Below, piece after piece: positions 55,389 through 55,805 of a stretch of 64,000 nucleotides of DNA. The stretch comes from Deltaproteobacteria bacterium (GTDB taxonomy: Bacteria > Myxococcota_A > Polyangia > HGW-17 > SLPX01). The DNA lies in assembly GCA_021162935.1 (NCBI GenBank), contig JAGGXR010000162.1:21159-85158 (forward strand), given 5' to 3'. The notes under the pieces are model-generated. The model made no database searches. It was not told the DNA's origin and saw only the letters and a list, made by a program, of their open reading frames with translations. The number at the start of each line of letters is the position of its first letter. Position 1 is the stretch's first letter. Both the position numbers and the translations under genes were made by a program.

Positions 55389-55805
55389 ATGCAGGCACAA
55401 GAACACGACTGGACGTACTCGGAAATGGTCGGCGCGCTCCTGCGGCAGGAACGAGGCAACGATGACAATGGACAGGCTTCGTCGGTCATCGAGCAATTGG
55501 TGACTCAGCTACGAGCCGGGCGCAGCGTCGACCATCTGGAAATGGACCTGACCGGGCTCGTTTCCTGCCCTGACTGCGAGCCGGAAGCTCCCTGCGCCAA
55601 ATGCCGGGCCGATCAGGCTGAGATGGACCGAGAAATCCGCGACCACATGCGTCGCGTAGCGGCCACCGGGACGGATCTCGTCACCTACCTAACCGATGCA
55701 GACCAATTTCACCAGACCTGGCAGGATCGCTTCAACCAGCTCCATCTGGCCGCGATGGGGGGAGAGGCCTTCTGCTCGTTCTGTTCATTCTGCTCGTTCT
55801 GCTGA
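55389..55805 (+). CDS. Small protein (138 aa) with a GG motif followed by a C-terminal EAFCSFCSFCSFC tail (candidate RiPP precursor)
   Basis: AGGAGG RBS 6 nt upstream of the ATG. Mid-protein CPDCEPEAPCAKC. The C-terminus reads ...LHLAAMGG|EAFCSFCSFCSFC*, encoded by a 9-nt tandem repeat. Confidence 0.5.
   Translation: MQAQEHDWTYSEMVGALLRQERGNDDNGQASSVIEQLVTQLRAGRSVDHLEMDLTGLVSCPDCEPEAPCAKCRADQAEMDREIRDHMRRVAATGTDLVTYLTDADQFHQTWQDRFNQLHLAAMGGEAFCSFCSFCSFC

Follow-up and report, generated by a model that had tools for sequence, protein, structure and literature searches.

A rare family of putative RiPP-like precursors with a conserved tail cysteine, encoded beside a radical SAM enzyme and an isoprenoid-synthase-fold protein in Myxococcota-like bacteria

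Introduction

ComQ, PalQ and the P-domain of ChrPC transfer prenyl groups (PMC10853753, PMC13290415), and in the case of PalQ the prenyl acceptor is the last residue of a precursor with a long leader, whose gene cluster includes a histidine kinase (PMC10853753). Here we describe a gene cluster which, judged by analogy, would work most like the PalQ/PalX/PalP and ComQ/ComX/ComP/ComA systems. It was found in a stretch of 64,000 nucleotides (hereafter, the window) from a “Deltaproteobacteria bacterium” (GenBank assembly GCA_021162935.1, contig JAGGXR010000162.1, positions 21,159 to 85,158), and encodes a 138-aa protein, a radical S-adenosylmethionine (SAM) enzyme of the SPASM type, a protein with the trans-isoprenyl-diphosphate synthase fold (trans-IDS fold; prenyltransferase-like, or PT-like, below), an S8 subtilase, a sigma54-dependent response regulator and a membrane histidine kinase. 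The 138-aa protein is probably a substrate of the radical SAM and PT-like enzymes, modified at a Cys of its C-terminal tail, in an undescribed pathway resembling those of RiPPs (ribosomally synthesized peptides that carry post-translational modifications). The system departs from the Pal and Com models in having no conserved tail Trp (Trp preceded the Cys in 2 of about 12 sequences) and in falling outside their families by sequence.

The likeness to the Pal system of Paenibacillus alvei (PMC10853753; PMC13290415) lies in an enzyme of the isoprenoid synthase superfamily whose sequence does not betray a prenyltransferase, a precursor with a long leader and a conserved final residue, a histidine kinase encoded in the same cluster, and the preference of PalQ for Gly before its target. 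The Pal target is a C-terminal Trp (C3 prenylation), whereas the conserved residue here is Cys; Pal has neither a radical SAM enzyme nor an S8 protease, whereas the window encodes both; and the Pal leader is of the NHLP type, whereas the window precursor belongs to an unrelated family of 57-138 aa with a Zn knuckle, in a system of predicted activity. Bacillus ComQ/ComX/ComP/ComA likewise has a trans-IDS-like prenyltransferase with an intact first aspartate-rich motif (FARM) and a degenerate second one (SARM), a precursor whose last few residues become the prenylated pheromone, a polytopic membrane histidine kinase and response regulator alongside, and no dedicated exporter. It differs in the internal Trp target of ComX, in ComA being sigma70-dependent and not a sigma54 activator, in having no radical SAM/SPASM enzyme and no PDZ domain in the kinase, and in showing no detectable sequence similarity to the window proteins.

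Three other groups of systems share single features with this locus. In the PapB ranthipeptides and the QhpD/QhpC/QhpE system of quinohemoprotein amine dehydrogenase, a radical SAM/SPASM enzyme acts on Cys of a ribosomal polypeptide, and the Qhp leader is removed by an S8 subtilisin-like protease (QhpE); most of the tails here lack a Cys-X3-Asp or multi-Cys/acidic pattern, and the window system has no RiPP recognition element (RRE) and an additional trans-IDS-fold enzyme. In the mycofactocin (MftA/MftC) and pyrroloquinoline quinone (PQQ; PqqA/PqqE) pathways, a radical SAM/SPASM enzyme acts at the very C-terminal end of a small protein, a peptidase frees a very small product and no exporter is needed, but these pathways use PqqD-type RRE chaperones, downstream redox enzymes and Tyr/Val or Glu/Tyr targets, none of which is present here. 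Eukaryotic CaaX and Rab prenylation offers a C-terminal Cys as candidate prenyl acceptor: the CSFC end of the window protein is formally a C-a-a-X motif, its multiple Cys resemble Rab CXC ends, and a distant Polyangium-type cluster with a member of the PT-like family encodes an Rce1-like protein. The CaaX and Rab enzymes are, however, alpha/beta heterodimers with an alpha-alpha barrel and not trans-IDS-like, in the window orthologues the Cys is the last residue and no aaX follows, and the cluster encodes no Rce1 or Icmt homologue.

Results

The precursor family and its conserved tail cysteine

The features of the precursor gene were as follows.
55389..55805, forward strand: 138-aa precursor (putative substrate) protein, ATG start
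55378..55383, forward strand: Shine-Dalgarno sequence AGGAGG, 5 nt upstream of the precursor ATG
55566..55604, forward strand: CPDC...CAKC four-Cys knuckle (C60, C63, C69, C72), invariant in 9 long-form sequences
55707..55751, forward strand: conserved helix FHQTWQDRFNQLHLA (residues 107-121), candidate recognition element, the sole segment common to all forms
55758..55763, forward strand: Gly124-Gly125, candidate site of cleavage by S8, invariant in every lineage that has S8 and missing where S8 is missing
55764..55802, forward strand: C-terminal tail EAFCSFCSFCSFC, following G124-G125, with C129 at the family-wide +8 position

The open reading frame, its ATG, its length and its AGGAGG ribosome-binding site were exactly as given in the original prediction, and an identical protein is deposited as MCD6500134.1 at NCBI (hypothetical protein of a “Deltaproteobacteria bacterium” metagenome-assembled genome, MAG). 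With respect to a related lineage (L005), the gene showed 51.5 synonymous and 23.5 non-synonymous differences. The ratio of non-synonymous to synonymous substitution rates (dN/dS) was 0.074 at a dS of 1.04, near the 0.067 of the neighbouring enzyme gene in the same comparison; the precursor is therefore a real gene under strong purifying selection, in agreement with the earlier proposal that the frame is translated.

A word-indexed search of 5.8 billion clusters gave 9 matches to the precursor family and an exhaustive profile search of 1.8 billion representatives gave 4. Even on a conservative reading, this is a new and very rare precursor family, of about a dozen sequences among 15 billion proteins. 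Pfam and NCBIfam scans of the 138-aa protein and of all 9 family members gave no family match, just B-box/ZZ zinc-finger noise (E about 0.1), and the NHLP and Nif11 leader models did not match the window precursor.

Eight orthologues (52-73% identity) aligned end to end with the window protein and stopped at ...LHLAxMGGE-[A/L/M]-[F/W/L]-C. Two more distant members kept the same helix before other tails: P0023 (111 aa) ended in ...FHARWKHRLEKLHLS-NVYTMAPC, and a 57-aa open reading frame at locus L018, which is essentially helix plus tail alone, ended in ...FQARWKDRLHKMHLS-DIHTITPC; the equivalent segment of the window protein is FHQTWQDRFNQLHLA-AMGGEAFC. The helix FxxxWxDRxxxxHL[A/S] was conserved, the 8-residue tail was variable (AMGGEAFC, NVYTMAPC or DIHTITPC) and the Cys was fixed exactly 8 residues past HL[A/S] in the window, orthologue, P0023 and L018 forms. 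A conserved recognition part with a variable core at one end is the arrangement expected of a RiPP precursor. In the AlphaFold2 model of the window protein (mean predicted local distance difference test score, pLDDT, 66), residues 70-92 and 97-123 formed confident helices and the tail was disordered from residue 122 (pLDDT 27-41 in the tail).

The radical SAM and PT-like enzymes

Two enzyme genes preceded the precursor on the same strand.
53185..54327, forward strand: peptide maturase of the radical SAM/SPASM type, with its ATG start probably at 53218 (Pfam Radical_SAM, 7.6e-23)
54314..55279, forward strand: 321-aa trans-IDS-fold (PT-like) protein, candidate peptide prenyltransferase, 14-nt overlap with the radical SAM stop

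Read in translation, the radical SAM protein had an N-terminal CxxxCxxC and nine Cys in a SPASM-like C-terminal CX2C..G..C / CX2CX5CX2C region; it starts directly at CxxxCxxC and thus has no N-terminal RRE. Its best NCBIfam matches were RiPP radical SAM/SPASM maturases, with full-length alignments to PapB and QhpD, at scores of 57-80 bits against cut-offs of 340-650, so that it fell in no curated maturase family (PapB, StsB, CcpM); its closest solved relatives were SkfB and PqqE. The window protein failed the Pfam SPASM model at E<=0.01, which was matched by its homologues at loci L008 and L021; it was 34% identical to the L008 homologue.

The PT-like protein had an invariant first motif, QDDVxD, and a second motif QLxNDhxG in place of the canonical FQxxDDxxD (motif correspondence judged by inspection). 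The FARM (DDxxD) aspartates were invariant across 8 very diverse sequences and the SARM was degenerate (NDxxG for DDxxD). ComQ has been described as having the same combination, its first Asp-rich motif intact and its second degenerate (PMC10853753). The family profile gave 34 clusters in 5.8 billion, in three genomic contexts, always beside a RiPP-type precursor: a new subfamily of isoprenoid-synthase-fold enzymes. Lipidation or prenylation of the tail Cys, listed as an alternative in the original prediction, stays a live possibility by analogy, the upstream gene encoding a trans-IDS fold like that of ComQ and PalQ (PMC10853753); a metal- or Fe-S-binding tail, also listed there, is conceivable.

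The order radical SAM, PT-like, (B12-binding radical SAM), precursor, (S8), sigma54 response regulator, histidine kinase recurred in seven lineages with 42-90% enzyme identity (loci L001/L002 with L013, L003/L004, L005-L007, L012, L010/L011, L018 and L021; L001/L002 and L013 are labelled uncultured Myxococcales). The radical SAM, PT-like and precursor genes were co-oriented in all seven, as is generally expected for a RiPP precursor and its enzymes. The gene for a B12-binding radical SAM protein lay between the PT-like and precursor genes in L001/2, L003/4, L012 and L021 and was missing from the window clade, L010 and L018; in the window clade the spacer was only 110 nt (55279-55389). In the sister loci this gene occupied 6631-7905 (L001), 3793-5115 (L012), 5980-7320 (L021) and 3-641 (L003), and its best NCBIfam matches were P- and C-methyltransferases and HpnJ. 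Directly upstream of the L021 cluster, which includes it, a CbiM/CbiQ/CbiO cobalt transporter of the energy-coupling factor type was encoded (1198-3670), at the position of an extracytoplasmic function (ECF) sigma factor in the window.

The S8 protease and the Gly-Gly site

The next gene was convergent with the precursor.
55732..57099, reverse strand: cytoplasmic S8 subtilase (Pfam Peptidase_S8, 1.7e-14), with a 155-aa N-terminal domain assigned to no family

The D, H and S motifs were present in the translation (VAVIDHP, DDHGTGSAG, ATSAAAP), and no transmembrane or signal segment was found. An S8 gene was present in all 5 lineages with the MGGE tail and missing from the 2 lineages with no GG (L010/11 and L018), in which the response-regulator gene came directly after the precursor. 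G124-G125 was invariant in the long forms and absent from the P0023 and L018 forms. The co-occurrence of protease and MGGE tail, and their joint absence, supports the earlier view of the GG as a processing site. The resemblance to a classical double-glycine leader did not hold: no C39-peptidase/ABC transporter was found among the called genes at any locus, an S8 subtilase being encoded instead, and the GG was missing from the distant members.

The 3' ends of the S8 and precursor genes overlapped by 74 nt in the window (55732-55805), the precursor repeat described below being read antisense as ...SRTSRMNRTSRRP...; the overlap was 53 nt in L005 and 26 nt in L001, with none in L003 or L012. Since it varies in this way across lineages, the C-terminal extension of the S8 protein probably arose incidentally, by read-through when the repeat expanded. 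At 55831-55895, 26 nt past the precursor stop and within the S8 coding region, lay an inverted repeat of 17 bp, rich in GC (TGAGGCCCCGCCGGGCA / TGCTCGGCGGGGCCCCA, 31-nt loop). It was rejected as a terminator: it folded no better than shuffled sequences (z -1.7), had no U-tract, and was kept in the sister clade alone (L005, not L001). An intrinsic terminator scan gave nothing useful.

The same enzymes in other cluster types

Homologues of the enzymes occurred in two further kinds of cluster. In Bacillota MAGs (L008, L009, L014), the PT-like gene came first and the radical SAM/SPASM gene second, followed in order by genes for a protein of 444 aa, a peptide of 65 aa, a protein of 719 aa, a PadR regulator and an ABC transporter. 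The 65-aa peptide passed the curated NHLP-clan RiPP precursor model NF038399 (53 bits, cut-off 40) and ended in ...DAQKAAGC (L008) or ...EAQKRAGC (L014). On sequence evidence, this is an independent replication of the arrangement: the same enzyme pair in another phylum, with reversed gene order, an unrelated predicted leader and a terminal Cys.

In Polyangium-type clusters (L015-17, L019, L020; for example, L020 3090-10470), the PT-like gene accompanied a Nif11/Frankia_peptide-type precursor and no radical SAM gene; the partners were a guanylate cyclase, a protein of about 610 aa related to the 444-aa one, an M50 peptidase, a cyclic nucleoside monophosphate (cNMP)-binding protein and an Rce1-like protein of the CaaX-protease family. 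The five precursors ended in RKAA-[F/A/A/T/S], not in Cys, and all five stopped at TGA. This cluster, present in cultured isolates, looks like a separate, undescribed RiPP system. The 444-aa (L008 5320-6654) and 610-aa (L015 7761-9620) proteins matched no Pfam or NCBIfam family, the sole faint similarity being to the squalene-hopene cyclase C-terminal domain (E 0.13), and their repeated GSW motifs suggest an alpha/alpha toroid. Across the three cluster types, the PT-like family was always found beside a putative RiPP-type precursor with a conserved extreme C-terminus, and the terminal Cys of these predicted precursors tracked with a radical SAM/SPASM partner.

This last correlation also suits a reading in which the radical SAM/SPASM enzyme alone makes a thioether (ranthipeptide- or sactipeptide-like) or other cross-link, and the trans-IDS-fold protein is a leader-binding partner replacing the RRE or an unrelated isoprenoid maker. 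The only full-length NCBIfam matches of the radical SAM protein were PapB and QhpD, both of which make Cys-Asp/Glu thioethers, and the QhpD pathway likewise has an S8 leader protease; the radical SAM protein has no N-terminal RRE, and the GG lineages all have E126 and C129. Every NCBIfam score was far under the family cut-off, however, and the E126...C129 pair is invariant in those lineages only: Glu is missing from the NVYTMAPC, DIHTITPC and KAAGC tails, and the tails outside the GG lineages showed no acidic acceptor for the Cys of the CX3D kind. The FARM aspartates, invariant across the 8 diverse PT-like sequences, argue for catalysis on a diphosphate substrate. We regard a pathway with the radical SAM enzyme as the only modifying enzyme as possible but unlikely.

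Regulation of the cluster

The regulatory features were as follows.
53091..53105, forward strand: sigma54-type -24/-12 promoter element TGGCAGGACTCTTGC, upstream of the radical SAM-PT-like-precursor operon
57200..58819, reverse strand: sigma54-dependent response regulator (REC, AAA+ and helix-turn-helix domains; Pfam Sigma54_activat, 8e-64, and Response_reg)
58725..61340, reverse strand: membrane histidine kinase (a first transmembrane segment, a periplasmic PDZ domain at about residues 69-120, about 7 more transmembrane segments, HisKA, HATPase)

The TGGCA-N6-TTGC pattern had a single exact match in the 64 kb, which was intergenic, correctly oriented and 113-127 nt ahead of the radical SAM start. 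A GG-N10-GC element was found 70-130 nt upstream of the radical SAM gene in L005-7, L001, L012 and L018 (5 lineages with the window), and no sigma70-like promoter was found in 52700-57300. The kinase and response-regulator genes adjoined the module in all lineages with enough flanking sequence, including those with no S8 gene. Since a sigma54 activator is always adjacent, the simplest reading is that this two-component system drives the operon. The PDZ domain in the first extracytoplasmic loop of the sensor kinase is an unusual architecture, shared by the L018 kinase despite its divergence. Binding of C-termini is typical of PDZ domains, and this architecture would suit the recognition of a peptide C-terminus.

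An ECF sigma factor and a 242-aa protein with no family match, probably a sigma/anti-sigma pair, were encoded at 51475-52827 (reverse strand) and kept in several lineages, not in all. The pair was ruled out as a core part of the system: CbiMQO took its place in L021 and none was detected in L018.

The position of the precursor gene among regulators, with no exporter, is one of the observations that would fit a functional small zinc-binding regulatory or adaptor protein, acting with the sigma54 or ECF regulators and using its Cys tail as a lipid anchor (CaaX- or Rab-like) or as a redox or metal sensor. The mid-protein CPDC...CAKC motif (C60-P-D-C63...C69-A-K-C72) was as originally described, its four putative Zn-knuckle cysteines being invariant in the long-form family, and no other protein of the block was as well conserved as the precursor. 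Against PDB sequences, a profile search also gave a marginal match of residues 9-57 (window 55413-55559; invariant segment TYSEMVGALLRQER) to the linker-histone H5/H1 globular winged-helix domain, with TYSEM in common (E 0.018). An H5-like fold was not supported by Pfam or by Foldseek of the AlphaFold2 model (best E 2.3).

An adaptor of this kind is nevertheless improbable. The knuckle was kept in P0023 and missing from the 57-aa L018 form, as were the N-terminal TYSEM motif and the GG; this homologue is helix plus tail, yet it keeps the whole enzyme and regulator neighbourhood, so that the Zn knuckle and the N-terminal domain are dispensable for the core system. The ECF sigma factor is not conserved with the cluster, and the correlation between S8 and GG would imply cleavage.

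The repeat and the four-Cys tail

55770..55803, forward strand: 9-nt tandem repeat TTCTGCTCG, 3.8 copies (Tandem Repeats Finder, period 9, 84% matches)

This repeat was one of 7 arrays scoring at least 50 in the 64 kb; the top score of the window belonged to an unrelated 45-nt tandem repeat at 20511-20621 (2.1 copies, 98% identity, nested 15-nt period). The description of the sequence coding for the last 13 residues, EAFCSFCSFCSFC, as a near-perfect repeat was fair, copy 2 (TTCTGTTCA) being off by two synonymous differences. With respect to the orthologue end ...GCC TTC TGC TGA, the window gene had three additional TCG-TTC-TGC units (27 nt). C132, C135 and C138, at a 3-residue pitch, derive from this expansion; C129 retains the canonical +8 position and is therefore no longer C-terminal.

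The same tail was present in three other metagenome contigs (L005-L007; proteins P0011/P0010, about 87% identical). Over the 39 nt of the tail, the window and L005 differed at 3 positions, all synonymous (GCC/GCG, TGT/TGC, TCA/TCC), with equal copy number. Because no non-synonymous change and no change in copy number had occurred at a dS of about 1, the expanded tail is under purifying selection as protein sequence and is fixed in its clade: (FCS)3FC is stable and specific to this lineage, having expanded from a tail with a single terminal Cys in the relatives. The expectation that the repeat number might vary and change the number of Cys was thus not borne out by the comparison of lineages. 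Absence of the tail from otherwise conserved orthologues had been named as a refuting observation, and this was half the case, the (SFC)3 units being missing and the conserved x-Cys end remaining; the Cys at +8, not the repeat, is therefore the defining feature. The (SFC)3 tail was found in the window clade only, a clade with no B12-binding radical SAM gene; this is a single evolutionary event and only a correlation.

A repeated aromatic-X-X motif beside a radical SAM/SPASM gene is a hallmark of triceptide precursors, and the two adjoin in the window, but a substrate for three-residue cyclophanes is very improbable here: the orthologues stop at x-Cys with no three-residue motif, aromatic-X-X being restricted to the window clade, Cys can be preceded by L, P, A or G, and curated triceptide maturase models were not among the best NCBIfam matches. 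An in-frame 9-nt tandem repeat could slip, and the clades do differ in copy number (1 versus 4 FC units), but a hypermutable contingency tract switching the Cys number between strains is hardly credible given the same copy number in four contigs from different metagenomes and two lineages at a dS of about 1, and copies diverged by synonymous substitutions that lower slippage.

Discussion

The gene order, the tail Cys at a fixed distance from the helix and the invariant FARM aspartates fit a precursor modified at its tail by two enzymes, which is the reading that we favour. The helix would dock the precursor on the enzymes, so that the +8 Cys reaches the active site. The radical SAM/SPASM enzyme may act on this Cys by forming a thioether cross-link or by an oxidative change of a C-terminal Cys like that made by MftC, and the ComQ/PalQ-like enzyme may transfer a prenyl group to the tail, the thiol being the most obvious nucleophile. 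Prenylation of Cys in particular is a tentative proposal, made by analogy with the enzymes named above. In precursors with an MGG|E tail, the S8 protease would cut at GG and free a short modified peptide, of the EAFC type in the relatives and the 13-mer EAFCSFCSFCSFC in the window. In the window clade, enzymes that require a free terminus would modify C138 alone, at +17 instead of +8; enzymes that measure from the helix would modify C129; and processive enzymes could modify all four Cys.

The PDZ kinase may in turn sense the product and, by way of the sigma54 regulator, switch the operon on, in a loop like those of ComQXPA and PalPXQ. Such a signalling loop is doubtful. More speculative still is the combination of all these steps into a ComQXPA-like autoinducer circuit built from new parts in uncultured Myxococcota-like bacteria: Cys prenylation, radical SAM cross-linking or oxidation, S8 release and PDZ kinase/sigma54 feedback, with the (SFC)3 tail giving a multiply lipidated or multi-ring variant.

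Several observations weigh against a RiPP-like pathway of this kind or against parts of it. Every trans-IDS-like peptide prenyltransferase characterised so far has Trp, not Cys, as its target, and PalQ is inactive when residues follow the target (PMC13290415); if the PT-like enzyme shared this intolerance, C129 would be no substrate in the window clade. The PT-like protein has no membership of the ComQ or polyprenyl-synthase families and no match in Pfam, NCBIfam or PDB sequences. One family member, P0022, ends in ...GGEAAS, with Ser for Cys (AGC TGA versus TGC TGA in its relatives). Of all the proteins in the block, the precursor is the best conserved (72% identity to L001, versus 49% for the radical SAM protein, 51% for the PT-like protein and 48% for S8), and such conservation of the N-terminal 125 residues is unusual if the leader is thrown away. 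The neighbourhood encodes no exporter and the S8 protease is cytoplasmic, which weakens the idea of an extracellular signal. The family is tiny (4 representatives at 50% identity in 1.8 billion), so that the correlations rest on few independent events, and synteny within Myxococcota-like lineages could partly reflect shared ancestry. The chemistry of the pathway, finally, is inferred from genes. A reading of TGA as selenocysteine, at P0022 (...EAAS-TGA) and in the Polyangium-type precursors, was also considered and ruled out, the downstream sequence not being conserved.

Searches of the literature on radical SAM enzymes with ComQ-like or polyprenyl-synthase-like RiPP clusters, and on bacterial RiPP Cys prenylation, turned up no account of this system, and to our knowledge no bacterial trans-IDS-fold enzyme targets a C-terminal cysteine. 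With its putative docking helix and fixed 8-residue spacer, the system would be a compact model of substrate measuring, for which natural variants are on offer: the minimal precursor of 57 aa, the form with GG and S8, the form with the B12-binding radical SAM protein and the form with the four-Cys repeat. A possible peptide-signalling loop, in a lineage represented by metagenomes only, is suggested by the conserved sigma54 promoter, the sigma54 regulator and the PDZ kinase. If modification of the tail Cys as proposed here is true, no earlier family of trans-IDS-like peptide prenyltransferases would share its acceptor, which is not tryptophan, or its partnership with a radical SAM/SPASM enzyme, and bacterial peptide lipidation would reach cysteine, a modification so far seen as eukaryotic.

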